Shown here one piece after another: positions 1,827-27,917 of a stretch of DNA of 34,947 bases. Within the stretch, counting starts at the first letter, position 1. Each line of letters begins with the position of its first letter. Origin of the DNA: a virus; the UHGV virus genome UHGV-0162383, one strand, 5' to 3'. The notes below the pieces were generated by a model. The model was not told the origin of the DNA and made no database searches. It worked only from the letters and a program-made list of their open reading frames with translations. Position numbers and translations under genes: made by a program.

Positions 1827-3503
1827 CTAAGCAACATGTAGTTCATCGTTGGCGGAAGTGGCTGCTTTGCGTTCCTGCTCAATAGCTAGTGACTCTCTAT
1901 ATTCTTTCGCCTCTGCAAACATTGTCCAGTGGGCATTGATGTTCATATCTTCAATAACCGATTTAATTTCTTTAATATTTACGTTAAAAAACTCTTTTCG
2001 TGAGTTAATTTTATTGACCTGCTTTTCGTTGAAGACTTTATGCAGATGATTTTCTAATGACGGTGCATCATCACTATAAATCATCGCATGAACATCGAAC
2101 GAAAAAGGAACACTAGCATCCCCAAGTTCACGAACACGATCAAGTGGTTCAAGGCGGCGTGTCATTCCAATTTTATATACATCTTCGCCAAATGAGCCAA
2201 TATTGCTAATTATATAAACATGGCCTGATCTAGTTTGTTGAGCCATAGAAATAGCTCGTTGGTTTTTAGCTTCAGCTTCTTCATATTTTAACTGTAGTTC
2301 AGCTATTTTTTGCTCTAAAGCTAAGCGTTGTTCTTCATTTGCAAGCATAAGCTCTTTCGTTGCTTTATTTATAGCTTGCTGAATAGCTTTTTCTTCTTTT
2401 TCGGCTTCTTTTATCGCTTTTTCATACTCTCTACGAGCTCTTTCCTCTTCACGAAGCTGTTCTTTAATCCTTCTTTGCTCCTCTTTTTCTTCGAGCATAA
2501 TTTCATTAACTGCAACTCCCCATTTTAGCTCGTTGAGTCGTGCCTGAAGATAGATGTCACTTATTTTTGCGGATCTAAAAGCAGAGCCATTATAATTTAC
2601 AAGTTGAAATGCATCTTTTATTTCTTGGGAAAGTTTTCCAAAATTGTTGTGTTTGACTTTTGATAAAATACTGTCAACTCTTCCATTGAAGGCATCCAAA
2701 ACAAAGTTGATAGCAGTATTACGCCTGTTTTGCTCAACATAATCACACGAAGCTGCTTTATTAGTTTTTATTAATGATTTTGTTAACTCCCTGGCTTTTT
2801 GTAATTCCTTGCCTGCATCTGTAAACTCATAATTTTCTGCCAATTCATCAAGTACACTACGGTTAGGGATGATCCATTCATCGCCATAACCTTCAATTTT
2901 ATTTTTCATTGATTTGGCAACTGCTTCATATTTTTCTGCAAACTCTTTAGCTTCATATGCTGAACCAGCAATCTCTTTTGCTCTTTCTTCTGCATCGGAA
3001 ATAATTTTTACTGCGTTGTCATTAGCATTTGAGATCAGCTCATTTGCTTTACTGTTGGCATTATCAAGACGTTCTTTGGCTTTCAGGCGTGCATCGCGAG
3101 CGTCTTTGGTGATTGCTATAGCTTCGCTATTAGCGTTGCTTATTGTTATCTGAGCTTGATAACTTGCTTCGTTTACTGTCTTAGCTGCCTTTATTTGGGC
3201 TTCTTCTATTTTTTGCCTAGCTATTGAGTCTGCATTTTTTATCTTATTCTCTGCCTCCATCACTGCGCTGTGCAATTCTTCGTATTGCCATAATGGTGCT
3301 GCTCGCCCTTCAAGCTCTGATAGATCTCGTGCAGTCTGTGCTAACTTTTCTTGATTTTCACTCAGTTGGCTGGAAAGGGCTATGTTGTTAGCCGTCAGGT
3401 TATCTATGGCGGCTTTGTGTTCTTTACTTTGCTTAAATAATATTATAGCTAGAACAGGGGCGAGAAATGCTAATAAGAATATAACGATGGAAAATGAATT
3501 CAT
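1827..3503 (-). CDS. Membrane-anchored coiled-coil protein with DUF4041-like middle region and C-terminal T5orf172 (GIY-YIG-like) domain; cargo (moron) gene
   Basis: 558 aa; N-terminal hydrophobic helix (IVIFLLAFLAPVLAIILF), long A/E/K-rich heptad-like stretches, C-terminal GHVYIISN...VYKIGMT.R...R..E motif resembling GIY-YIG/T5orf172; strongly AT-rich compared with flanking int and cI. Confidence 0.6.
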   Translation of the reverse strand: MNSFSIVIFLLAFLAPVLAIILFKQSKEHKAAIDNLTANNIALSSQLSENQEKLAQTARDLSELEGRAAPLWQYEELHSAVMEAENKIKNADSIARQKIEEAQIKAAKTVNEASYQAQITISNANSEAIAITKDARDARLKAKERLDNANSKANELISNANDNAVKIISDAEERAKEIAGSAYEAKEFAEKYEAVAKSMKNKIEGYGDEWIIPNRSVLDELAENYEFTDAGKELQKARELTKSLIKTNKAASCDYVEQNRRNTAINFVLDAFNGRVDSILSKVKHNNFGKLSQEIKDAFQLVNYNGSAFRSAKISDIYLQARLNELKWGVAVNEIMLEEKEEQRRIKEQLREEERARREYEKAIKEAEKEEKAIQQAINKATKELMLANEEQRLALEQKIAELQLKYEEAEAKNQRAISMAQQTRSGHVYIISNIGSFGEDVYKIGMTRRLEPLDRVRELGDASVPFSFDVHAMIYSDDAPSLENHLHKVFNEKQVNKINSRKEFFNVNIKEIKSVIEDMNINAHWTMFAEAKEYRESLAIEQERKAATSANDELHVA

Positions 3504-3523: not shown

Positions 3524-4120
3524 TCAATTTGAAACTATTGTACTTCTTATACAAGCAACCACTTCAATATCAGAAAATGCACATTCAAAGCTATTCTCTG
3601 TAGTTGTAATTTTAATCATACCTTTTGGAAGCTTTGTGATTTTTCGAATGGAATAGGTTCCGTCGATGTTGATTAACCAGTGTCCATCAAGTACTTCAGA
3701 AAATTTTTGATCACAAATGTATGTGACAAGCCCATCCTGAATAACAATTGGTGATGAAAGATTTGCAGGAAGAAATGATGAATCGAATACATATGAACCA
3801 TCTTCAATCATTTTGCCTGCGGTAAGGCGAAACTTGGGAAGCTCTTCTGTGGCTACTGTCAGCGAGCTTTGCTTAAGTCCTTGCCCGGTGGTTAACCATT
3901 TCAGTGAGGTTCCTGTTTCAAGAGCACATTGGATTATCCAGTCTGCAGGAAACGTATCCCGCAAATACCTGTTCGCCAGAGTGCTTTTTGATACTTCCAA
4001 GTGATCAGCTAAAGCCTGTCGTGTCGTAAAGCCATAAGCTTCGACTAATCGCTCAATCGCAGCCTTACCACCTTTATTGGGATTTATTTTGATCTCACTT
4101 GGGTACTTTGATGTTGACAT
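3524..4120 (-). CDS. cI: Phage immunity repressor, 186 CI-like (HTH N-terminal domain)
   Basis: 198 aa; N-terminal HTH-like segment (YGFTTRQALADHLEVSKSTLANRYLRD); position immediately after int and divergent from apl/cII-like genes, as in 186. Confidence 0.75.
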   Translation of the reverse strand: MSTSKYPSEIKINPNKGGKAAIERLVEAYGFTTRQALADHLEVSKSTLANRYLRDTFPADWIIQCALETGTSLKWLTTGQGLKQSSLTVATEELPKFRLTAGKMIEDGSYVFDSSFLPANLSSPIVIQDGLVTYICDQKFSEVLDGHWLINIDGTYSIRKITKLPKGMIKITTTENSFECAFSDIEVVACIRSTIVSN

Positions 4121-6020: not shown

Positions 6021-6874
6021 GCACCATCCTGAAATGGGCGGGAAATAAAACCGCCATTATGTCCGAACTGAAAAAACACCTTCCTGCAGGCCCGCGACTG
6101 GTTGAACCTTTCGCGGGTTCCTGTGCTGTGATGATGGAGACGGATTATCCCTGCTATCTGGTTGCGGATATTAATCCTGATTTAATCAACCTCTATAAAA
6201 AGGTTGCCGCTGATTGTGAGGTGTTTATATCTCGTGCCAGAGCTTTATTTGAGGACGCAAACAGGGAGGTGACTTATTACAACATAAGACAGGAGTTTAA
6301 TTACTCAACTGAAATTACTGATTTCATGAAAGCGGTATATTTCCTGTATCTCAATCGTCACGGTTACCGTGGGTTATGTCGTTATAACAAGAGCGGGCAT
6401 TTCAACATTCCATACGGTAATTATAAAAATCCGTATTTCCCTGAAAAAGAAATTCGCGCATTTGCAGAGAAAGCCCAGCGAGCAACGTTTATCTGCGCCA
6501 GCTTTGATGAAACGCTGGCGATGCTGCAGGTGGGGGATGTGGTGTATTGCGATCCGCCTTATGACGGTACGTTTTCCGGCTATCACACTGACGGCTTCAC
6601 TGAAGATGACCAGTATCACCTGGCATCCGTTCTTGAACATCGGTCATCAGAAGGATATCCGGTCATTGTTTCTAACAGTGACACATCCCTGATCCGTTCG
6701 TTGTATCGCAATTTCACCCACCACTACATCAAAGCAAAACGCAGCATCGGTGTGGCAGCTGGTGAGAGTAAATCTGCAACAGAAATCATCGCTGTTTCCG
6801 GGCCGCGCTGCTGGGTAGGATTTGATCCTTCGCGTGGCGTGGATTGTTCCGTCGTGTACGGAGTGCGTGCATGA
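6017..6874 (+). CDS. dam: DNA adenine methyltransferase (Dam-like, N6-adenine MTase)
   Basis: N-terminal ILKWAGNK...PFAGSCAV (AdoMet-binding) and DPPY catalytic motif ([15 protein letters not shown]); ATG 6017 with GGAGG RBS, ATGA overlap with the upstream stop. Confidence 0.85.
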
Positions 6875-9285
6875 GCCATGCTGATATGAACAACTGCAGC
6901 GGCTTTAATGAGGTCGCCGCAGCATTCTCATGGAACAGCCCGAAAAAGGCCATTAACCCTTATCTGGACCCGGCGGAAGTTGCGCCGGTTTCTGCGCTTT
7001 CAAACCTGATCACTCTGTACGCTGCCGATAACGAGCAGGAACAACTGCGCCGCGAGGCACTGAGTGATCAGGTCTGGGAGCGTTATTTCTTTAATGAATC
7101 CCGTGATCCTGTCCAGCGCGAAATGGAGCAGGATAAGCTCATTAGCCGGGCAAAGCTGGCGCATGAGCAGCAGCGTTTTAATCCGGATATGGTCATTCTG
7201 GCGGACGTCAACGCCCAGCCTTCCCATATCAGCAAGCCGCTGATGCAACGTATTGAATACTTTAGCAGCCTGGGCAGGCCAAAGGCTTATTCCCGCTATT
7301 TACGTGAGACGATTAAGCCATGTCTGGAACGACTGGAGCATGTACGCGACAGCCAGCTATCTGCATCTTTTCGCTTTATGGCAAGCCATGAAGGGCTGGA
7401 CGGCCTGCTGATCCTGCCTGAAATGAGTCAGGATCAGGTGAAGCGCCTGTCTACCCTTGTCGCCGCGCATATGAGCATGTGCCTTGATGCAGCTTGTGGT
7501 GATTTGTATGCCACCGATGACGTTAAGCCAGAAGAAATCCGCAAGACATGGGAAAAGGTGGCAGCGGAAACCCTGCGTCTGGATGTCATCCCGCCTGCGT
7601 TTGAGCAACTCCGCCGGAAAAGAAACCGCCGTAAACCCGTGCCCTATGAACTCATTCCGGGTTCGCTGGCGCGTATGTTGTGCGCCGACTGGTGGTACCG
7701 GAAATTATGGAAGATGCGTTGCGAATGGCGGGAAGAGCAGTTGCGTGCTGTCTGCCTGGTCAGCAAAAAAGCATCTCCCTATGTCAGCTATGAAGCCGTG
7801 ATGCATAAACGTGAGCAGCGCCGTAAGTCGCTGGAGTTTTTTCGTTCTCATGAACTGGTGAACGAAGACGGCGACACGCTGGACATGGAGGATGTGGTAA
7901 ACGCCAGCAGCAGCAACCCTGCGCATCGCCGCAATGAGATGATGGCCTGTGTTAAAGGCCTGGAGCTTATCGCGGAAATGCGTGGTGACTGCGCCGTTTT
8001 CTACACCATTACCTGTCCGTCACGTTTCCATTCCACGCTCAATAACGGCAGACCAAACCCAACCTGGACAAATGCGACGGTAAGACAAAGCAGCGATTAT
8101 CTGGTCGGCATGTTTGCTGCATTTCGTAAGGCGATGCACAAAGCCGGGTTGCGCTGGTATGGCGTGCGGGTGGCTGAGCCGCATCATGACGGTACGGTTC
8201 ACTGGCACCTGTTGTGTTTCATGCGCAAAAAAGACCGCCGTGCCATTACTGCATTGTTGCGTAAGTTTGCCATCCGTGAAGACCGCGAGGAACTGGGTAA
8301 TAACACTGGTCCACGCTTTAAATCTGAGCTGATAAACCCGCGCAAAGGAACACCGACAAGCTACATCGCGAAATACATTAGTAAGAACATTGACGGGCGT
8401 GGTCTGGCTGGCGAGATCAGCAAGGAAACGGGTAAATCCCTGCGTGATAACGCTGAATACGTTAATGCCTGGGCGTCTCTGCATCGTGTTCAGCAATTCC
8501 GCTTCTTTGGTATTCCGGGGCGTCAGGCTTACCGTGAACTGCGATTGCTGGCTGGTCAGGCGGCAAGGCAACAGGGCGACAAAAAAGCAGGTGCGCCGGT
8601 ACTGGATAACCCGCGCCTTGATGCCATCCTGGCTGCTGCTGATGCTGGTTGTTTTGCCACTTACATCATGAAGCAGGGTGGTGTACTGGTTCCCCGCAAA
8701 TATCACCTCATCAGAACTGCTTATGAAATTAACGAAGAGCCGACCGCCTATGGCGATCACGGCATTCGTATTTATGGCATCTGGTCACCCATTGCAGAGG
8801 GCAAGATCTGCACTCATGCAGTGAAGTGGAAAATGGTTCGTAAAGCCGTTGACGTTCAGGAGGCGGTAGCCGACCAGGGCGCTTGCGCCCCTTGGACTCG
8901 TGGCAATAACTGTCCCCTTGCTGAAAATTTGTACCAACAAGGGAAAGACAAATCAGCTGATGGAGATACCAGAACGGATATCACCCGCATGGATGACAAG
9001 GAGTTGCACGATTACCTGCACAGTATGAGCAAAAAAGAGCGCCGGGAACTGGCTGCAAGGTTACGCCTGGTGAAACCGAAACGGCGTAAAGACTACAAAC
9101 AGCGAATTACAGACCATCAGCGACAGCAGCTCGTCTATGAACTGGAGTCCAGAGGATTTAATGGCAGCGAGAAAGAGGTCGATTTACTCCTTCGCGGCGG
9201 CAGTATTCCGTCAGGAGCAGGTCTGCGTATCTTCTATCGGAACCAGCGTTTGCAGGAAGATGATAAGTGGCGAAACCTGTATTAA
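6871..9285 (+). CDS. A: Replication initiation protein A (rolling-circle HUH endonuclease, P2 gpA family)
   Basis: About 804 aa; HUH motif ([13 protein letters not shown]) and downstream Tyr-containing segment ([10 protein letters not shown]); ATG 6871 overlaps the dam stop (ATGA); the six-frame ORF begins upstream at TTG 6844. Confidence 0.9.
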
Positions 9286-9379
9286 TTACGCGGGTTAACA
9301 ATTCGTGCTCTTAATAATACCAGGCATATCAGGCTGATGAACGTAAAAAAACGTTTTACATCAGTAAGATTATTATATA

Positions 9380-9395
9380 CTGTAAATATAAACAG
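9380..9395. promoter_or_regulatory. LexA (SOS) box CTGT-N8-ACAG: taCTGTaaatataaACAGtg
   Basis: Canonical CTGT-N8-ACAG with AT-rich spacer, about 45 bp upstream of the Tum-like/DinI-like gene pair. Confidence 0.65.
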
Positions 9396-9438
9396 TGGTT
9401 ATGTATACAGTATTGCTTGTGGTGTCATAGGAGGAAAG

Positions 9439-9627
9439 ATGCAGGACTATTTTTTGGAGTCTTTGAAGCTCCAGCGCATTGATTTTTTTCTTAAGCTTGT
9501 AGCGGCTAGTGAGTGTAGTGATGAAGAGAAGGGGCTGGCTTTGCAGTGGGTTTCTGAACTGACAGATGAACTCATGGCAAAAATCAGAAGCCACGAATAC
9601 AACCGCTCAATGGATGTCATCAGCTGA
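9439..9627 (+). CDS. Small protein downstream of the LexA box; candidate Tum-like SOS-inducible antirepressor
   Basis: 62 aa from ATG 9439 with AGGAGG RBS; position and LexA control match the 186 tum locus; no sequence-level confirmation. Confidence 0.4.
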   Translation: MQDYFLESLKLQRIDFFLKLVAASECSDEEKGLALQWVSELTDELMAKIRSHEYNRSMDVIS

Positions 9628-9637
9628 GGGGACTTTT

Positions 9638-9871
9638 ATGCGCATTGAAATAATGATCGATAAAGAGCAGAAGATTAGCCAGTCTACCCTGGACGCCCTT
9701 GAATCCGAGCTTTACCGCAATCTGCGCCCCCTGTATCCCAAAACGGTAATTCGTATCCGTAAAGGTAGCTCTAACGGTGTGGAACTGACCGGACTGCAAC
9801 TGGACGAAGAAAGGAAGCAAGTGATGAAAATTATGCAGAAGGTGTGGGAAGACGACAGCTGGCTGCATTAA
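9638..9871 (+). CDS. DinI-family protein
   Basis: 77 aa, MRIEIMIDKEQKISQSTLDALESELYRNL...VWEDDSWLH, resembling E. coli DinI in length and in N- and C-terminal motifs; immediately follows the Tum-like ORF under the same LexA box. Confidence 0.7.
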   Translation: MRIEIMIDKEQKISQSTLDALESELYRNLRPLYPKTVIRIRKGSSNGVELTGLQLDEERKQVMKIMQKVWEDDSWLH

Positions 9872-10141
9872 GAAACGTTGCTGGCGTCTGAACTTGCTTC
9901 TGGCGTCAGCAAGGTTGAACAACGAGCTGTGCGAGGCGTTAGTGTCAATTTGTTACCTTAACCACGATATATGCTAGGAAATTAACAGTTCTTAAGAAAC
10001 CGCTTGCATGATCGAGCGCATTGAACTTAAGTTTAAGTAACGAAATCAACAGATGATATTGTTGTCTAAATTTTAAAGATAATCTGTTGAGGTTGTAGGC
10101 GTCGGAGTGTAGACTTCCGCGCCATGTAAAAAGGGGGAGTT

Positions 10142-10357
10142 ATGTCAAGCATCGCCGCATTTAGCCTGGGTAACCCAGTTGAACGTCTGGCAAGGGTTCT
10201 TAAAGAGAACCAGGACAAACTCAATCTTAGTAAAGATGGTTTTGTGTCCGTAGACTTGTCTAACAAAAGAGCAATGGATGCCATCAAGGCACAGATGGAT
10301 AAGCTTGAAGGCATCAAAACGAGCACTGTAAAAGAGAAAACTAATAGAACCAGATAA
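10142..10357 (+). CDS. Small soluble charged protein; first gene of a two-gene cargo operon
   Basis: 71 aa; strong RBS AGGGGGAG before ATG 10142; stop overlaps the downstream start (TAATG); AT-rich. Confidence 0.45.
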   Translation: MSSIAAFSLGNPVERLARVLKENQDKLNLSKDGFVSVDLSNKRAMDAIKAQMDKLEGIKTSTVKEKTNRTR

Positions 10358-11199
10358 TGGCAACATTACTTTTAGCAGTGATTTTGGTTAGTGGTTTTAT
10401 TTATGTAAACCTATCACTTTCAACAAGATACCGATATAAGCGTTCCAACGGCTGGGACGCTTATTTTTTTGTGGCTGCCTGGGGTATTGTTTTTTTTCTC
10501 CTTGGCGGTTTTTTCACCTTTATTTTGAACGTCAGCGGAGGGTTTCGTTGGCTGGCTAATGCCTTGAATCTAACACCTGACAGTTTTAATGGCATGTTGT
10601 CTTCATCGAAAGACAAACTTCAAAGAATAAATGAAATCAAACAGATAGCATGGGTTATGATTTCAATTGTCCTCGCTGCGATTTCAGGTTTTGGAAATAA
10701 GTTACGCACATCACGTGGAGATCGTCGCTGGGATGCCTTAGCTAAAGCTGTGGGTAATAACGCTTTCGAATCATTACTCATGGAAGCGTCCGCAAGACAG
10801 TTTCCGATCATAGCAACTCTGTCGTCTCGCAAAATCTATGTTGGTCTTGTTACTTGTCCGGCGTTAGAAAACGGGCTTTCAGAGCACCTTGAACTTCTCC
10901 CGATGTTAAGCGGATATCGGGATAAAGATGATCTAACGATTAGTATCACGACTAACTATCACCAACATTATCTTGATAGTGGTGTGATAAGTGGAATGTC
11001 TCGGCTTAATATCGAAGATTTCCGTGTGCTCATACCAAAAGATGAGGTTGAAACAATTTCGTTTTTTGATACTGAGACATATAACAAATTTAAAGAAAAT
11101 GAAGCCAGGGATAGAAAGAGCTGTCGAAAGATTGGTAGTAAAAGTGCATCTTCGCGCAGCAAGCGTGCAGCAGATGCTGAGTCAAATGATCGTGCATGA
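10357..11199 (+). CDS. Integral membrane protein (about 3 TM helices) with cytoplasmic C-terminal domain; second gene of the cargo operon
   Basis: 280 aa; hydrophobic segments near residues 3-17, 35-57 and 97-112, then a soluble domain of roughly 130 aa and a basic Ser/Arg/Lys-rich tail; translationally coupled to the upstream ORF; followed by an intrinsic terminator. Confidence 0.5.
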   Translation: MATLLLAVILVSGFIYVNLSLSTRYRYKRSNGWDAYFFVAAWGIVFFLLGGFFTFILNVSGGFRWLANALNLTPDSFNGMLSSSKDKLQRINEIKQIAWVMISIVLAAISGFGNKLRTSRGDRRWDALAKAVGNNAFESLLMEASARQFPIIATLSSRKIYVGLVTCPALENGLSEHLELLPMLSGYRDKDDLTISITTNYHQHYLDSGVISGMSRLNIEDFRVLIPKDEVETISFFDTETYNKFKENEARDRKSCRKIGSKSASSRSKRAADAESNDRA

Positions 11200-11247
11200 C
11201 TATGCTGCATGAGATCGCATGATCGTTTGAGGATCGTTTTTGCTAAG

Positions 11248-11272
11248 GCCCGCCAGAACTGGCGGGCTTTTG
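11248..11272 (+). terminator. Rho-independent terminator (GCCCGCCAG..CTGGCGGGC + TTTTG)
   Basis: Perfect 9-nt inverted repeat with short loop followed by a T-run, about 50 bp after the stop of the membrane-protein gene. Confidence 0.7.
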
Positions 11273-11316
11273 CGTAGATCATGCACCTGCATGAAAACTA
11301 CTACATAAAGCGGGCA

Positions 11317-11335
11317 GGCGTGGCGGGGATACGAG
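11317..11335. other. Candidate cos (cohesive-end) site, GGCGTGGCGGGGA...
   Basis: GGCGTGGCGGGGA matches my recollection of the first 13 nt of the 19-nt cohesive ends of P2/186 (GGCG[A/T]GGCGGGGAAAGCA..); located between the A-side cargo and the portal-side cargo, where cos lies in this family. Confidence 0.4.
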
Positions 11336-11455
11336 CGCGCGCTAGAAACGTTTACTGATATTCTTGTAGTACATTGCATTTTTCTTTTTTTATGTCATAT
11401 CATTAGCCATTTGAATAGGACATTATTATCAATTTGTTGTCTCTGAGGATAAGTT

Positions 11456-13237
11456 ATGAATTTTGATGCAACACCACTAAATATAAAAAACATTCTATCT
11501 GTAAAACAAAGATATGTTATTCCACGTAATCAACGTGAGTTTAGTTGGGAAAAGCTTCAGCTTGAAGAATTATGGCAAGATATTGTCAGAAACATAAGGT
11601 TGAATGAAGATGGACAGAACTTGGAGTGTTCAGAATATTTTATAGGGACTATTGTTCTTTCTGGAGCAGATAGTGATGATGTATTAGAAGTGGTTGATGG
11701 ACAACAACGATTTTCAGTTATTACTATATTGCTTTCATTAATATCGCGTAAATTGCGTTCCTTAGGGCAAGATTCATTAGCGGATGATATATTTAAAACA
11801 TATATCGTTACTGTGAGTCCTACATTTAGCAGAAGCCAATTAGCTTCAAATGGTGAGACATTTATTGAAAAATTAGCAAAAAATAGCGATAGAACATATT
11901 TTAAGTTAAAATATCAAGATCGCGAAGAGCATCAAGTTGATGAATCTTGTGAAGAAGATGTACGTATAAGTTATGCAGGAATTTTTCTTTCTAGAAAACT
12001 AGGGAGGAAATCACTCTGTTCTGCATTGTTGCGAGATGGTGCAAAACATTATAATAACCAAGATTATATATTTTGTTTGACTGCTGTATATAGAATGATT
12101 ACCAATTATTTGAAGTTGGTAAAAATATCTGTAGGTAAGGAGGATGATGCTTATGATATTTTTGAAGTGTTGAATGCTCGAGGGATAAACTTAAGTTCAA
12201 TTGATTTGATAAAGAATAAAGTATTCCAAACTTGCACTCAAACATATCCGGTAGATATTGCAAAAACAAAATGGGATTATATCGTTACTCAAATTGAGTC
12301 TAGGGATAGTAATAGCACTATTGCTGATTATATTAGAACGTGGTGGCTTTCTAAGTATAATTATATTGGAGAAGATCAACTTTATCGTGCTTTTAAACGT
12401 GAGATTCAAGATGAGAATACTTTATTGTCATCAGCATCATTTCTGAACGAATTATATGATGATGTTGAATTATACTGTAAAATAATAGCGCCAAATACAG
12501 ATGACTGGCCTCAACCTGATCAGCGTGAAATTTACAACTCGTTAAAAGCATTCGAGATTTTTAATGTGAGTATTCCTCGACCATTTGTACTCTCATTACT
12601 TAGAAAACGTAAAGAGAAACCGAGAGCCCTTACACAATCAATGCTGATAGAATGTTTGAAGTCCTTAGAGTCATTTCACTTTAAGTTTAATGCAGTATGT
12701 CGTCTAAGACCATCTGGAATCGATGCAAAATATTCTGTATTAGCAGTAAGAATGAATAAGGCATTAAATAAAAGAGATGTTGAGGGTGTTATTAATGACG
12801 CATTAGATTATTTTACACAGAAAGGGCCTTCAGAAAATATATTCAAACAAGCATTTTCAAAGAATATTGTTTATACAAATAAAAAGTCTGGGCAAAGGAA
12901 GTTGATTGTTTATATTTTTGACAAATTGGAACGTATCAGACGAGGGACGCGAGAGTTAAAAATGGATATAGTTTCTTTGGAACACATATCATCTCAAAGC
13001 AAAACTAACGAGTCAGTCGTGGGTATGATTGGTAATTTACTACCACTCTGTTTTTCACTTAATGAAGATTGCAAAAATTATGAGTTGCACAAAAAAATAG
13101 AATCTTATAAAAAATCTGATTTAAAATTAGTTACAGAGTTTGTTAGTGAGTCAGAAGCAAGAGAACATAAATGGGATGATTCATTAATAAAAGAAAGAAC
13201 AGATAGCTTGGCGTTAGAAACGTTTGCTAAAATATAA
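11456..13237 (+). CDS. DUF262/DUF1524 two-domain protein, GmrSD-like (type IV restriction-like) nuclease; cargo gene
   Basis: 593 aa; N-terminal DUF262/ParB-like motifs (IPRNQREFSWE and VVDGQQRFSV), C-terminal His-Me-finger-like motifs (SLEHISSQS ... GNLLPLCFSLNEDCKN); strongly AT-rich; RBS GAGGA before ATG 11456. Confidence 0.6.
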   Translation: MNFDATPLNIKNILSVKQRYVIPRNQREFSWEKLQLEELWQDIVRNIRLNEDGQNLECSEYFIGTIVLSGADSDDVLEVVDGQQRFSVITILLSLISRKLRSLGQDSLADDIFKTYIVTVSPTFSRSQLASNGETFIEKLAKNSDRTYFKLKYQDREEHQVDESCEEDVRISYAGIFLSRKLGRKSLCSALLRDGAKHYNNQDYIFCLTAVYRMITNYLKLVKISVGKEDDAYDIFEVLNARGINLSSIDLIKNKVFQTCTQTYPVDIAKTKWDYIVTQIESRDSNSTIADYIRTWWLSKYNYIGEDQLYRAFKREIQDENTLLSSASFLNELYDDVELYCKIIAPNTDDWPQPDQREIYNSLKAFEIFNVSIPRPFVLSLLRKRKEKPRALTQSMLIECLKSLESFHFKFNAVCRLRPSGIDAKYSVLAVRMNKALNKRDVEGVINDALDYFTQKGPSENIFKQAFSKNIVYTNKKSGQRKLIVYIFDKLERIRRGTRELKMDIVSLEHISSQSKTNESVVGMIGNLLPLCFSLNEDCKNYELHKKIESYKKSDLKLVTEFVSESEAREHKWDDSLIKERTDSLALETFAKI

Positions 13238-13273: not shown

Positions 13274-14311
13274 TTACATACACTCCACAGAGTATTCACT
13301 GAATGAGATGATGTTTTTTTTAGCCCATTCATTAAGTTGCAGAATATGTTTTTGAATTGGTAGTAACTCATTCATAACAAATACTTTCGCGGCCTTCTCC
13401 ACATCCCCAAAACCCCCAACATTATTAGGCATTATCCCCATCATTTGCGGCGGCACGCGGTGCGCAGCCATCATGTCATCACGGCTCACGTTTTTGATAT
13501 TCAGAAACTCATCCTTCGCTGCGACTTCTGACAACGGGATAATCTGAAGACCGTCTTTTTTACCATTAGGCGAGTACATAAACAGATTGCGGAAGTTACC
13601 TGGTCCTTTGGCGCTTTTCATCGCATTGCGAAGGTTGTTCACGTCCTCCTGGTTCTGCGCGGCATCGGTCATGTACATGATGAAGCCTGCATGACTGCCG
13701 TTAATGTAATACTTGCGGCGGAACAGCGTGGCGGACTCGTTGAGCAGGGCTGACGGAATGGCAGAAAGATAGCCGGGCAGACCATAGATCTCCTGATTTA
13801 TGTCCGGTTCCATCAGATGGAAAATGCTGCCTTTCGTGAACTGATACGGCTGCGTGGTCATGCCGTATTGCACAAACCAGTAGGTATCCAGGTCTAACCC
13901 GCGTCGGGTGTATTTTGCCAGCGCAGGTTCAAGGGCGATAACTTCACCGAAGCGGTTCGTGCGTTTCTCCAGATAGGCGTTACCAAATACCAGATAGTCC
14001 TGTACAAAACGCGAAAAAGCCTGTTGGCTGAGCAGCGGATGAGGGATATAGGTACTGGTCAGAATGTTGCACTTTACTGCAATCGGGGAACTGTGATGCA
14101 CGGCAGCGCGGAAGGTGCGCGCCAGTCCGTCAAAGCTGACGGGCGGCTCATACCAACGGTCCATCTGTACGCATTCCACATAGTCCAGTAATTCTCGGCG
14201 GTCCAGAACTGGAACGGGATCGCCGAAGCTGAATGCTTCGGCTGTAGTCTGGTTTTTATGCTGGATCTGATTCGTCGCCGCAGTGCGGTTTTTCTTACTC
14301 TTTCCCATCAA
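13274..14311 (-). CDS. Q: Portal (capsid vertex) protein, P2 gpQ family
   Basis: 345 aa; sequence (FSFGDPVPVLDRRELLDYVE...WYEPPVSFDGLAR...GNAYLE..) matches my recollection of P2 Q; adjacent to and co-oriented with the terminase. Confidence 0.9.
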   Translation of the reverse strand: MMGKSKKNRTAATNQIQHKNQTTAEAFSFGDPVPVLDRRELLDYVECVQMDRWYEPPVSFDGLARTFRAAVHHSSPIAVKCNILTSTYIPHPLLSQQAFSRFVQDYLVFGNAYLEKRTNRFGEVIALEPALAKYTRRGLDLDTYWFVQYGMTTQPYQFTKGSIFHLMEPDINQEIYGLPGYLSAIPSALLNESATLFRRKYYINGSHAGFIMYMTDAAQNQEDVNNLRNAMKSAKGPGNFRNLFMYSPNGKKDGLQIIPLSEVAAKDEFLNIKNVSRDDMMAAHRVPPQMMGIMPNNVGGFGDVEKAAKVFVMNELLPIQKHILQLNEWAKKNIISFSEYSVECM

Positions 14312-24520: not shown

Positions 24521-25938
24521 GCACAAAATTTTATACCCTGCTGACGGATATTGGCGCGGCGAAACTTGCCAGCGCCGCCGCGCTCGGTGTGCCTTTAAAA
24601 ATTACCCATATGGCAGTCGGCGATGGCGGCGGAATATTGCCAACGCCGGACGCAAAGCAGACAGCACTGGTAAATGAGAAACGCCGGGCTGCGCTGAATA
24701 TGCTCTATATCGACCCGCAGAACAGCAGCCAGATTATTGCCGAACAGGTGATCCCTGAAAATGAGGGCGGTTGGTGGATCCGTGAAGTGGGCCTGTTTGA
24801 TGAGTCCGGGGCATTGATTGCCGTGGGTAACTGCCCGGAAAGCTATAAGCCGCAACTGGCTGAAGGCAGCGGGCGCACCCAGACCGTGCGCATGGTGCTG
24901 ATTACCAGCAGCACGGACAATATCACCCTGAAAATCGACCCTGCCGTCGTGCTGGCAACCCGCAAGTATGTGGATGACAAGGTACTGGAGCTGAAGGTGT
25001 TCGTGGATGATAAGATGGCAAAACATCTTGCCGCACCGGACCCGCATTCACAGTATGCACCCAAAGAAAGCCCGACATTGACCGGAACACCCAAAGCGCC
25101 AACGCCAGCGGAGGGGAATAACACCACGCAGATTGCGACCACCGCGTTTGTTCAGGCCGCTATTACTGCTCTGATTAACGGTGCGCCAGCCACGCTGGAC
25201 ACACTGAAAGAAATTGCCGCAGCCATTAACAATGACCCGAAATTCAGTACCACCATTAACAATGCGCTGGCACTAAAAGCACCGCTGTTGAGTCCGGCAC
25301 TCACCGGAACGCCAACAGCACCTACTGCGGCACAGTCGGTTAACAATACACAGATTGCCACCACGGCTTTTGTGAAATCGGCAATTGCGGCAATGGTGGG
25401 GTCTGCACCTGCTGCACTGGATACACTGAACGAACTGGCTGCGGCGCTGGGGAATGACCCGAACTTTGCCACGACAATGCTTAATGCACTGGCAGGTAAA
25501 CAACCGCTGGACAATACGCTGACTAATTTGAGTGGAAAGGATGTAGCTGGTCTTCTCACATACCTTGGTTTGGGAGAAGCGGCAAAACGAAATGTGGGAA
25601 CAGGGGAAAATCAGATACCGGACATGGCTTCATTTAGTGGGGTGAGGGATTATTACGGAAAACAACTTTTGCCAGGAGGGTTGATACTTCAGTGGCTGAC
25701 GATTCCATCAAGTGCAGCAGCCAAAGCTGTAACACTGAATAATGGTAATTATCAGCTGTCAGGCTATAAATGGCCCCAGTCATTTGGTGTCCTGTTTGCT
25801 GTGTTTGCTACAAAAGTTTCTGGCTCGACTAACGAAGCATATGCAATCTCAGTTAATCGTCACTCTACCGATGTAATTGTCACCTGGAATGCCCGTAAGG
25901 CTGATGATGTCCACATTTTAGGAATTGGGAAATTATGA
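24517..25938 (+). CDS. H: Tail fibre protein H (current orientation); constant N-terminal part fused to variable C-terminal part
   Basis: 473 aa; N-terminus [39 protein letters not shown] typical of P2-like H; two internal ~70-aa repeats; recombination site within the gene at 25553-25578. Confidence 0.85.
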
Positions 25939-26354
25939 AAATGAAATGGTCCCCATCTGTTCAGGGATTTTTCTCTGAAAATAACAGCGATATTCCCGAT
26001 GATGCTTTCGATATTGAAGATGCTCTTTATTATGAACTTATGAATGGTCAGAGTACGGGGAAAATTATTATCAATAACCCGGATAACTACCCTGTACTTA
26101 CTGAATATCCAGCGAAGACACAGGAACAGGAAATAGCTGAAGCGGAGGGAATGAAAAGTATACTTATTGAACAGGCCAACGAATACATGAACAGTAAGCA
26201 ATGGCCTGGTAAAGCCGCTATTGGTCGTCTGAAAGGTGAGGAACTGGCGCAATATAATTTGTGGCTGGATTACCTGGACGCACTGGAACTGGTCGATACT
26301 TCCGGTGCGCCAGATATTGAATGGCCTACGCCTCCGGCAGTTCAGGCCAGATGA
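25935..26354 (+). CDS. G: Tail fibre assembly chaperone G (current orientation)
   Basis: 139 aa immediately downstream of H with ATGA overlap; typical tail-fibre-assembly position. Confidence 0.7.
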
Positions 26355-26589
26355 CGTCCGACGCGGTGCTGGTATCTGATTCCATCACCGCGTCGATATT
26401 ACCAACATCATATTCAGTCATTTCCGGTTCCGGTAGTGCTATAAACTCTCCGTCAGAATAGAACCAACCGACGCCTGCATCTATATGATCAATATTTATA
26501 ATTTCGCAGTTAGAGAATAAATCACCCTCTCCATCCCAGATAATAATATTTTTCACCACGCCATGTTCAATCAGAGCAAAATTACTCAT
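26326..26589 (-). CDS. Alternative tail fibre assembly/chaperone gene, inverted orientation (used after segment inversion)
   Basis: 87 aa ORF on the opposite strand inside the invertible segment, immediately downstream of the alternative fibre tip ORF. Confidence 0.5.
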   Translation of the reverse strand: MSNFALIEHGVVKNIIIWDGEGDLFSNCEIINIDHIDAGVGWFYSDGEFIALPEPEMTEYDVGNIDAVMESDTSTASDVIWPELPEA

Positions 26590-27282
26590 CAGGCATACTC
26601 CTCAACAATAACTATTCCCGGGGCACCGTCACCTCCCGATTGAGCCTCACTTCCGGCAGATGCGCAGGCTCCGCCTCCGCCAGCACCAAAGCCCTCAGCT
26701 TTACCACCACCACGTCCGCTGAATGATGAAGAACTTGCACCACCTATACCGCCTGAACCTAGTGGTGTATCCCCCCCGGTACCACCTGCAACAGCTTTAA
26801 CAGAGATAACCATTGCTCCTGGTGTTTTTGCACTACAGCGAAATGCTCTTAGTACAGTACCGGACGATGTCGGACTGGCACCCCATGAAATACCCTGAAT
26901 ATATGATGTGTTTGCAGATGCTCCCCCCGCGCCACCGCCTGTACCACCCGGTGCAGTTATCAGGGAACCGAAATAAGTTGTGCCACCTTCACTACCTGAA
27001 TTTCTTCCGGCTCCCCCCCCTTTACCTGCAGCACCGATAATAACGTTGACTTCGAAATCATTATCAACCTCGAAAAATGCTTCAATAAATGCACCGCTCA
27101 ATCCAGCTCCGGCTGTTGCCTGCTGATTTTCTGTTGTTTCAGGAACCCCACCGCCGCCGCCACCGCCACCAGAGGCAATGACCCTTATCTTTTTTGTCCC
27201 TGGTGTTGGGATATATTTTCCAGAGCTTTTAAAAATATTCGTGTTTAACAAACGACCAGAGAATCTGGCTTCTCCCAAACCA
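26589..27282 (-). CDS. Alternative tail fibre C-terminal (receptor-binding) segment, glycine-rich; no own start, expressed only after inversion
   Basis: Open frame on the minus strand runs from the crossover site to 26589; Gly-rich tracts (GGGGGGGG, GGTGGGAGG); shares the site-encoded GLGEA residues with the current H junction. Confidence 0.65.
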
Positions 27283-27350
27283 ACGTTTATGAAAATGCAG
27301 AGATAACGGCTAACTGGCATCATCTCCGGTTTTTATTCAGGGGAATGATC

Positions 27351-27917
27351 ATGCTTATTGGCTATGTACGCGTGTCAACAAATGACCAGAACACCGATTT
27401 GCAACGCAATGCACTGAACTGTGCGGGATGTGAGCGGATTTTTGAGGATAAAATCAGTGGCACCAAGTCCGACAGACCGGGGCTGAAAAAGCTGCTCAGG
27501 ACACTATCGGCAGGAGACACGCTGGTTGTCTGGAAGCTGGACAGACTGGGGCGCAGTATGCGGCATCTTGTTACGCTGATAGAAGAGCTGCGCCAGCGTG
27601 GCGTAAATTTCCGAAGCCTGACTGACAGTATTGATACCAGCACCCCAATGGGCCGTTTCTTTTTTCATGTCATGGGTGCCCTGGCTGAAATGGAACGCGA
27701 ACTGATAGTTGAACGTACCAGGGCGGGGCTGGCTGCAGCTCGTGCTAAAGGCAGAGTAGGTGGACGCCGTCCTAAGTTGACCAGCGAACAGTGGGCACAG
27801 ATTGGGCGTTTACTCGAGGCCGGAGAATCAAGACAGCGTATTGCACTGATTTTTGATGTAGGCGTTTCTACCATTTATCGAAAATTTCCGGCAAATAAGA
27901 ACAATAAATCTCCCTGA
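27351..27917 (+). CDS. Site-specific DNA invertase, serine recombinase (Hin/Gin/Cin/Pin family)
   Basis: MLIGYVRVSTNDQNTDLQRNAL...VVWKLDRLGRS...DSIDTSTPMGRFFFHVMGALAEMERELIVERT: resolvase/invertase catalytic domain with Ser in YVRVST plus C-terminal HTH; an alternative ATG lies at 27345. Confidence 0.9.
   Translation: MLIGYVRVSTNDQNTDLQRNALNCAGCERIFEDKISGTKSDRPGLKKLLRTLSAGDTLVVWKLDRLGRSMRHLVTLIEELRQRGVNFRSLTDSIDTSTPMGRFFFHVMGALAEMERELIVERTRAGLAAARAKGRVGGRRPKLTSEQWAQIGRLLEAGESRQRIALIFDVGVSTIYRKFPANKNNKSP

Follow-up and report, generated by a model that had tools for sequence, protein, structure and literature searches.

A two-gene cargo cassette beside cos in a P2-like prophage: a small basic protein and a membrane protein with a predicted Sm-like domain

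The gpA-gpQ region is an established defence hotspot of P2-like phages (PMC9122126; PMC13586616), and the tin and old genes found there in P2 represent dispensable cargo for lysogenic conversion and exclude other phages (PMC9122126). Here we describe a pair of overlapping genes in this hotspot in UHGV-0162383, a virus genome of 34,947 nucleotides (referred to below, at its full length, as the window) that represents a P2-like prophage. The pair encodes a small basic protein of 71 amino acids (aa) and a protein of 280 aa with three predicted transmembrane (TM) helices. It is placed between A/dinI and cos, the side of cos on which tin and old are located in P2 (annotation of NC_001895). The proteins are unrelated, however, Old being an AAA/OLD nuclease and Tin a soluble protein, and a promoter near cos drives leftward transcription of tin and old, whereas the pair points rightward.

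Phage lambda provides a two-gene prophage operon of comparable layout, RexA/RexB, in which a cytoplasmic protein (RexA, soluble, ~279 aa) is combined with a polytopic inner-membrane protein (RexB, ~144 aa, four TM helices) and the relative dosage of the two matters. By analogy, the translational coupling and the intragenic hairpin described below suggest that dosage might also be controlled in the pair; unlike in RexAB, however, the sizes of the two proteins are reversed, the membrane protein has a predicted Sm-like domain and the pair has no match in PADLOC. Like the large protein, Cap15 of the cyclic oligonucleotide-based antiphage signaling systems (CBASS) combines N-terminal TM helices with a compact cytoplasmic beta-barrel, which could bind a ligand and, upon oligomerization, lead to disruption of the membrane. 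The operon studied here differs from Cap15 in its barrel type, in encoding a 71-aa partner instead of a cyclase or signal enzyme, and in the missing PADLOC match. MscS-type channels resemble the large protein in size, in their three TM helices and in having an Sm-like beta domain in the cytoplasm, but we rejected an MscS-like channel because neither an MS_channel profile match nor a fold match was obtained.

TM effectors have been discussed (PMC9122126), and the AbiC/AbiP proteins, which consist of an N-terminal membrane anchor and a sequence-nonspecific nucleic-acid-binding domain, are non-toxic until triggered by a phage protein (PMC13064643). Lactococcal AbiP binds RNA and single-stranded DNA, and the tethered Sm-like domain and basic tail of the large protein could work similarly, nucleic-acid binding being in this case suggested by the modelled fold only. 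Unlike the pair, AbiC/AbiP are single-gene systems with one or two TM helices and another predicted fold, and no homology to the pair was detected. RexAB, AbiC/AbiP, Cap15 and the WYL/Sm-like sensors are analogies, none of them homologous to the pair. What is known is hotspot cargo composed of a membrane protein and a small partner; what is new is the protein family, the predicted membrane-tethered Sm-like domain and a hairpin inside the large gene.

Gene structure, boundaries and distribution of the cassette

The stop codon of the small open reading frame (ORF) overlaps the start codon of the large one in the sequence TAATG. A purine-rich Shine-Dalgarno stretch (AAAGGGGGAG, 10130-10139) precedes the ATG of the small gene, whereas no comparable motif can be read ahead of the ATG of the large gene, which fits translational coupling. 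The G+C content (GC) is 0.40-0.42 over 10001-11500 as compared to ~0.52-0.60 in the phage backbone. An original prediction, made by a model from the letters of this stretch, had described an AT-rich pair of overlapping ORFs with a strong ribosome-binding site, located between an SOS module and cos, and this description is borne out, with dinI upstream and a cos-like site downstream of the pair.

The two genes belong together throughout their family. In 102 of the 103 distinct loci (169 loci were examined for context) a small ORF lies directly upstream of the large gene, with stop-to-start distances of -13 to +35 nucleotides. The upstream small ORFs are homologous by hidden Markov model in the nearer clades, and a hairpin-helix core of ~35 residues is common to them family-wide, down to ~25% identity of the large protein. 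This near-universal pairing together with the shared core indicates a true two-gene module and not a chance neighborhood. In a word-indexed search the large protein returned 57 clusters and the small protein 29 (at 90% identity), each of them either unnamed or misnamed, and an exhaustive profile search with the large protein retrieved 2,891 clusters at 50% identity (E ≤ 0.001), nearly all of them of 240-300 aa and matching from end to end. In five genomes, two of which belong to Symbiopectobacterium symbionts, the large gene is split in two next to an intact small gene; no clear case of the reverse (small gene broken, large gene intact) was seen in the loci viewed. In a chromosomal clade that is represented in three species of Photorhabdus, the pair is followed after ~190 nucleotides by the gene for a ClpX-type C4 zinc-finger protein of 161 aa, which may be a third component there.

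Alignment of the junctions to phage 500465-1, which lacks the cassette, delimits an insertion of 1.25 kb (9943-11191) into conserved backbone. In that phage the backbone block that follows the pair comes directly after dinI, and in the window the large ORF extends a few codons into this block, which supplies its stop codon. When the segment 10000-11300 was used as a megablast query, 52 of 5,426 complete E. coli genomes (~1%) proved to contain it in full, while only its last ~107 bp are common to ~700 E. coli genomes and many P2-like phages; the pair is thus present in 52 of the ~700 E. coli genomes that bear the adjacent block. Together with the hotspot literature this agrees with the claim that the position between A and cos is a variable cargo site. 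The block is also found in many P2-like phages of Klebsiella and Salmonella, with cargo inserted on both of its sides. Another claim, that the pair has its own intrinsic terminator, did not survive: the hairpin at 11242-11273 exists, but it is a backbone element, because the block containing it is conserved in P2-like phages without the pair, directly after dinI. It is the only terminator downstream of the pair in the window, whereas both lambdoid copies that were scanned have a strong terminator of their own after the pair. A repeat search revealed no convincing flanking direct repeats that could represent insertion scars.

The leader of the cassette is conserved between E. coli and Klebsiella, the Klebsiella cassette being ~80% identical. 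It contains a 15-nucleotide inverted repeat, TCAACAGATGATATT ... AAGATAATCTGTTGA (10046-10060 and 10076-10090, 15-nucleotide spacer), the core of which, CAACAG...CTGTTG, is kept in the Klebsiella copy, and which could be an operator or a hairpin of the 5' untranslated region.

Among the 169 loci, 70 are of the P2 type, in which gene A precedes the pair and the portal gene follows it, and in these we find 49 distinct gene arrangements between the pair and the portal gene. Most of the genes across cos from the pair are recognized defence genes; neighbors match GmrSD, Septu PtuA/PtuB, bSEFIR, retron-type reverse transcriptases, TIR and SieB, and further PIN_12, KAP NTPase, RelA/SpoT, DndB, FRG and PDC candidate families. 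The comparison of gene content at this position, which had been proposed as a check of the original prediction, therefore places the pair among many known defence genes. Other copies are found at unrelated prophage sites: in a lambdoid nin region between hok/gef and DUF968/RusA/Q, in lambdoid tail clusters between L, K, I and J, in another tail module adjoining the tape-measure gene, and at a prophage edge in Shewanella. A relative is encoded on 232 IMG/VR contigs, and the phage homologues in GenBank belong solely to temperate or induced phages (Klebsiella phage ST15-OXA48phi14.1, Salmonella phages SEN4 and SEN5, Cronobacter phage phiES15, Pseudoalteromonas phage C5a, Pseudomonas phages vB_Pae_U5 and U6). 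Judged by its location between backbone genes, its deviant base composition and its patchy distribution, the pair behaves as a "moron" and is probably a self-contained operon that temperate phages carry as an accessory.

The two proteins and the hairpin within the large gene

A hydropathy scan of the large protein identified three hydrophobic segments (~1-23, 34-63 and 94-112), which also appear as three long helices in an AlphaFold model built from 34 homologues (predicted local distance difference test score, pLDDT, 76.7). An N-out/C-in topology fits the charges of the loops and of the tail, the latter (residues 251-280) being basic with 10 K/R versus 4 D/E. Beyond the TM helices the model contains two short helices, a helix with a bent beta-sheet (~136-236), a final helix and the basic, disordered tail. 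The N-terminal alpha-helix and strongly bent five-stranded beta-sheet of this domain form a small barrel, as is characteristic of the Sm/LSm-like fold, and the top 50 Foldseek matches in the PDB are solely Sm/LSm entries or small nuclear ribonucleoprotein/spliceosome complexes containing them. We therefore predict from the model that the large protein is an inner-membrane protein with a cytoplasmic Sm/LSm-like beta-barrel (~136-250); this domain is acidic and the tail basic. A small soluble partner and a three-TM protein with cytoplasmic domain and basic tail had been anticipated by the original prediction, in line with hydropathy, charges and model; the Sm-like fold had escaped it, as had the conserved hairpin described further below.

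Invariant and near-invariant residues (122 representatives, 22-45% identical to the protein of the window) are located mostly in the Sm-like domain and include K159, Y161, G163, P182, S185, G186, Y187, R188, Y201 and F237; the family signature reads SRKxYVG...PxLSGYRDKD...NY. Sm/LSm/Hfq proteins, WYL sensor domains and Rof/YaeO are related small barrels, but PxLSGYRDKD is not an Sm1/Sm2 motif, and the large protein differs from Sm, LSm and Hfq proteins by a helical insertion between strands 4 and 5 and by its fusion to three TM helices. Searches of the large protein for the Sm1/Sm2 motifs and with the LSM and Hfq profiles gave no match. Nor was there a match in Pfam at E values up to 1 or in NCBIfam, with no enzymatic domain detected in either scan, and only a chance-level match (E 0.14) in PADLOC. 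Sequence and profile searches of the PDB with four alignments yielded nothing significant, the best sequence-level match being the Sm-like Rho inhibitor YaeO/Rof (E 0.25, not significant). In the BFVD database only weak structural matches were found (TM-score ≤ 0.37 normalized to the query), one of them named "Sm-like domain-containing protein" and the other named ones uninformative. Six of the 122 diverse family members match DUF6338 weakly (best E 4.6e-05) and the protein of the window does not, which points at most to a distant relationship with another uncharacterized family. The only remaining match is to one PHROG of unknown function. We also considered a class I holin, with which the topology and the basic tail would be compatible, but the protein is too large (280 aa versus ~100 aa), has a folded cytoplasmic domain and is encoded in the wrong position, the lysis genes being ~9 kb away at ~19.5-21 kb (holin, lysozyme, LysB and LysC in a near-identical prophage).

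The small protein is basic (isoelectric point ~9.9), and its ORF is under purifying selection, with a median dN/dS of ~0.19 in 55 pairs. It matches phrog_9843, a family of unknown function, and has no match in Pfam, NCBIfam or PADLOC; a search of 47 small-partner homologues against the profiles returned scattered chance matches only. The claim that neither protein belongs to a described family is accordingly upheld, and the PADLOC run leaves the undescribed status of the pair in place. A G-x-h-x-h-D/N hairpin motif suggested an AbrB/MazE-like antitoxin, a candidate that we dropped for want of profile support. Several records of the 71-aa protein, spread over at least four clusters, carry the name "multidrug ABC transporter ATPase", which in a protein of 71 residues without an ABC motif is a propagated misannotation.

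Within the large gene, at codons ~27-39, a terminator scan of the window flagged an element resembling an intrinsic terminator, which was also picked up in two lambdoid cassettes with proteins of only ~50% identity. It consists of a stem of 11-12 bp (ATAAGCGTTCC / GGGACGCTTAT), a loop of 5-7 nucleotides and a run of seven T, the form in the window being ATAAGCGTTCC-AACGG-CTGGGACGCTTAT, and has a minimum free energy of -17.2 kcal/mol (z = -2.4). Across 41 distinct sequences of the phage clade 93.6% of the cells pair, as compared to 31-51% in slid-column controls. In seven sequences, which represent at least three lineages, one stem pair has C-G in place of U-A, and in a single case another pair has become G-C; these compensatory changes keep the stem and yet alter the encoded amino acids (S, G or H instead of D; A instead of S). 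Codon usage points in the same direction: at 86 columns of conserved amino acids in 69 sequences the codon entropy is 1.32 bits on average, and the sole columns below 0.3 bits are K28 (AAG in 69/69), D34 (GAC in 59/59), A35 (GCT in 68/69), Y36 (TAT in 66/69) and F37 (TTT in 69/69). These codons correspond to the stem and the U run, while those of the loop and the flanks are free to vary. In distant clades the hairpin is absent, even where a similar peptide motif occurs, and no Rfam family matched in 9300-11500. From these patterns we infer an intragenic RNA element under selection.

Most likely the hairpin attenuates transcription into the large gene and thereby limits the amount of membrane protein; alternatively, it might play a part in transcriptional slippage at the U run. 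Attenuation and translational coupling combined would yield far more small than large protein. Whatever the function of the pair, the hairpin is a clean case in which selection on the RNA takes precedence over the choice of codons and even of amino acids, and it would illustrate how the proportions of two coupled proteins are set in a phage cassette. The gene has two long T runs within 10462-10500, T7 at the hairpin and T8 ~25 nucleotides further on. Around these runs the large ORF is broken in the IMG/VR contigs L119 and L129, and comparison with the window shows a single-base indel in L119 and another in L137; these breaks may represent sequencing error, decay or slippage alike. Phase variation at the T runs was considered and dropped, the single-base indels in two viral contigs not being distinguishable from sequencing error.

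Possible functions of the pair

The explanation that we prefer, tentatively and with somewhat less than even confidence, is a module that acts at the membrane to exclude phages, through abortive infection or superinfection exclusion, and that is held silent by its small partner. It is favored by the position in the hotspot, the restriction to temperate phages, the moron-like behavior and an effector-like architecture without enzymatic domain, and dosage control would also fit a harmful effector; the five genomes in which the large gene is split and the small one intact count in its favor as well. In such a module, three-TM proteins would assemble into a ring in the inner membrane via their cytoplasmic Sm-like domains. 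The small basic partner would be present in excess, being translated first, ahead of a large gene that has no Shine-Dalgarno motif and is spared by most transcripts, which would end at the hairpin; it would bind the acidic Sm-like domain and keep the module inactive. Upon infection, a phage-derived ligand (a nucleic acid end or a phage protein would be candidates) might engage the Sm-like domain or the basic tail, or the partner might be lost, whereupon the clustered TM helices would perturb the membrane or block DNA entry. The gene structure, coupling, pairing, boundaries, mobility among prophage sites, predicted fold and hairpin selection from which this proposal starts are directly supported, while oligomerization, the partner-effector interaction, the trigger, the membrane effect and the anti-phage activity itself are what we infer from them.

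Several observations weigh against phage exclusion. Distant members of the family (~25-35% identity) are found among ordinary chromosomal genes: in Pseudomonas next to genes for a flavin oxidoreductase, an HTH-cupin regulator and outer membrane proteins, in an arrangement that is syntenic across many species, in Photorhabdus next to multicopper oxidase or YceI, in Psychrobacter next to purL and in Neisseria next to valS. Such contexts are no less compatible with a cellular function than with defence, and they make guilt by association strong for the clade of the window copy but absent for the wider family. The association with a defence hotspot, from which the original prediction had derived its candidate anti-phage module, consequently holds for the phage-borne clade with its changing, known defence neighbors and not for the ordinary chromosomal sites in which distant members of the ~2,900-cluster family reside. 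Sm-like barrels are, moreover, common small folds, and the model of the proposed keeper (helix, beta-hairpin DGFVSVDL, helix) is of low confidence (AlphaFold, pLDDT 65). A consensus scan found no plus-strand sigma-70 promoter in the 199-bp leader, so that the pair could simply be read through from the early operon of the window. Searches of PADLOC-DB v2.0.0, Pfam and NCBIfam gave no homology of the pair to defence, toxin or antitoxin families. The pair is also not listed in the accessible part of the DefensePredictor supplements, and in Table S5A of the hotspot survey it appears only as "hypothetical + hypothetical", e.g., together with SieB or PIN_12 (PMC9122126). A literature search by accession, PHROG identifier, DUF6338, sequence and topic found, in the portions of the texts that were available, no characterization of the pair; under the searched accessions and sequences, no published test of protection against phage came up either.

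Much of the same evidence could be accommodated by a toxin-antitoxin or addiction module without direct anti-phage role, in which a membrane toxin is countered by an over-produced small antidote and the cassette stabilizes the prophage or itself. The order of a small and then a large gene with overlapping stop and start is that of type II toxin-antitoxin systems, expression would be biased toward the small gene by coupling and hairpin, decaying loci keep the small gene and split the large one, one copy adjoins the hok/gef toxin gene, and the pair moves among unrelated prophage sites. We nevertheless regard this as rather unlikely: searches of Pfam, NCBIfam and PDB profiles assign neither protein to a known family of toxins or antitoxins, the small protein has no recognizable DNA-binding antitoxin fold, and many toxin-antitoxin modules in defence hotspots prove to be abortive-infection systems, so that the explanation overlaps with phage exclusion. 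Equally doubtful in our view, though to be taken seriously on account of the chromosomal relatives, is a membrane function outside defence that prophages just carry along. A tethered Sm-like factor of this kind might target RNA or a protein partner, or might contribute to the physiology of the envelope or of stress, as a lysogenic-conversion or lifecycle gene. The very large size and uniform architecture of the family, the syntenic chromosomal neighborhoods of its distant members and the best, though not significant, PDB match to a Rho inhibitor speak for it, and the missing promoter and the orientation, which is that of the early operon, may indicate expression during lytic growth. The clade of the window copy, on the other hand, occupies accessory sites of prophages, is found in temperate phages only, is rare and patchy in E. 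coli and shares the best-documented of the defence hotspots with defence genes that replace one another; small defence systems are, besides, often isolated chromosomal genes too, so that a chromosomal context does not exclude defence.

That there is no real two-gene unit, the small ORF being spurious or a leader, or the pair being ordinary P2 backbone, is hardly credible. The small protein does fold poorly in silico and bears a nonsensical database name, but its ORF evolves under purifying selection, is kept upstream of large homologues down to ~25% identity and has its own PHROG family, and most P2-like prophages with the same flanking backbone lack the pair; these conservation data exclude this explanation as far as sequences can do so. 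At the other end, the phage-exclusion reading could be extended to an immune device in which a membrane-tethered Sm-like ring directly senses, at the membrane, incoming or nascent phage nucleic acid or else a phage protein and responds with a membrane lesion or a block of DNA entry, the small partner acting as keeper and the hairpin with its U7 run (terminator- or slippage-like) gating the effector to tight transcription-translation coupling, and by which the ~2,900-cluster family would be a widespread unrecognized defence family. As a whole, we consider this quite improbable.

If the pair protects, it would represent a new defence family without detectable homology to known systems, widespread in Gammaproteobacteria and beyond, would provide the first function for a membrane-tethered Sm-like domain and would fill one "hypothetical + hypothetical" entry in the best-studied prophage defence hotspot. 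Should it instead prove to serve addiction only, or to be a membrane factor of the housekeeping type, this would still be a warning against equating hotspot location with defence.

Coordinates and neighbouring genes

The window encodes an integrase, the CI and CII regulators, a Dam-type methylase and the replication gene A (6844-9285) of a P2-like prophage; portal and terminase genes follow on the minus strand from 13274, with head, lysis and tail genes beyond. Coordinates around the pair are listed in Table 1. The cos-like site GGCGTGGCGGGGATACGAG was compared with the annotated cosL of P2, GGCGAGGCGGGGAAAGCAC.

Table 1. Features of the window around the gene pair.
Feature	Position	Strand	Remarks
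dinI	9566-9871		upstream of the pair; PF06183 match
Leader	9943-10141	+	cassette-specific, ~199 bp; junction alignment to phage 500465-1
Small partner gene	10142-10357	+	71 aa, ATG start; ORF call; phrog_9843
Large gene	10357-11199	+	280 aa, ATG start; ORF call; predicted three-TM inner-membrane protein
Element resembling an intrinsic terminator	10436-10471	+	codons ~27-39 of the large gene; terminator scan
Backbone block next to cos	11192-11343	+	context, not cargo; conserved in phages without the pair
Terminator-like hairpin followed by TTTTG	11242-11273		within the backbone block
cos-like site GGCGTGGCGGGGATACGAG	11317-11335		14/19 bases identical to P2 cosL (NC_001895)
GmrSD type IV restriction enzyme gene	11456-13237	+	PF03235 and PF07510; PADLOC HEC-06/Orf5
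Portal gene	13274-14311	-	

The pair is separated by cos from the gene for the GmrSD enzyme, which is followed by the portal gene and has a GC of 0.31-0.36. Another low-GC stretch, between the genes for the integrase (691-1743) and the CI repressor (3524-4120), encodes on the minus strand a protein of 558 aa (1827-3503) that matches PADLOC PD-Lambda-1 (E 7e-120) as well as Pfam T5orf172/MUG113 and DUF4041. By these matches it is a second, recognized defence gene of the prophage, at the int-cI cargo site. A serine invertase of the Hin/Gin type (Resolvase and HTH_7 domains; 27345-27917, plus strand) is encoded in a region of lower GC and adjoins oppositely oriented tail-fibre and assembly genes (25935-27323), so that the region 25935-27917 looks like a tail-fibre inversion cassette of the kind that switches host range.

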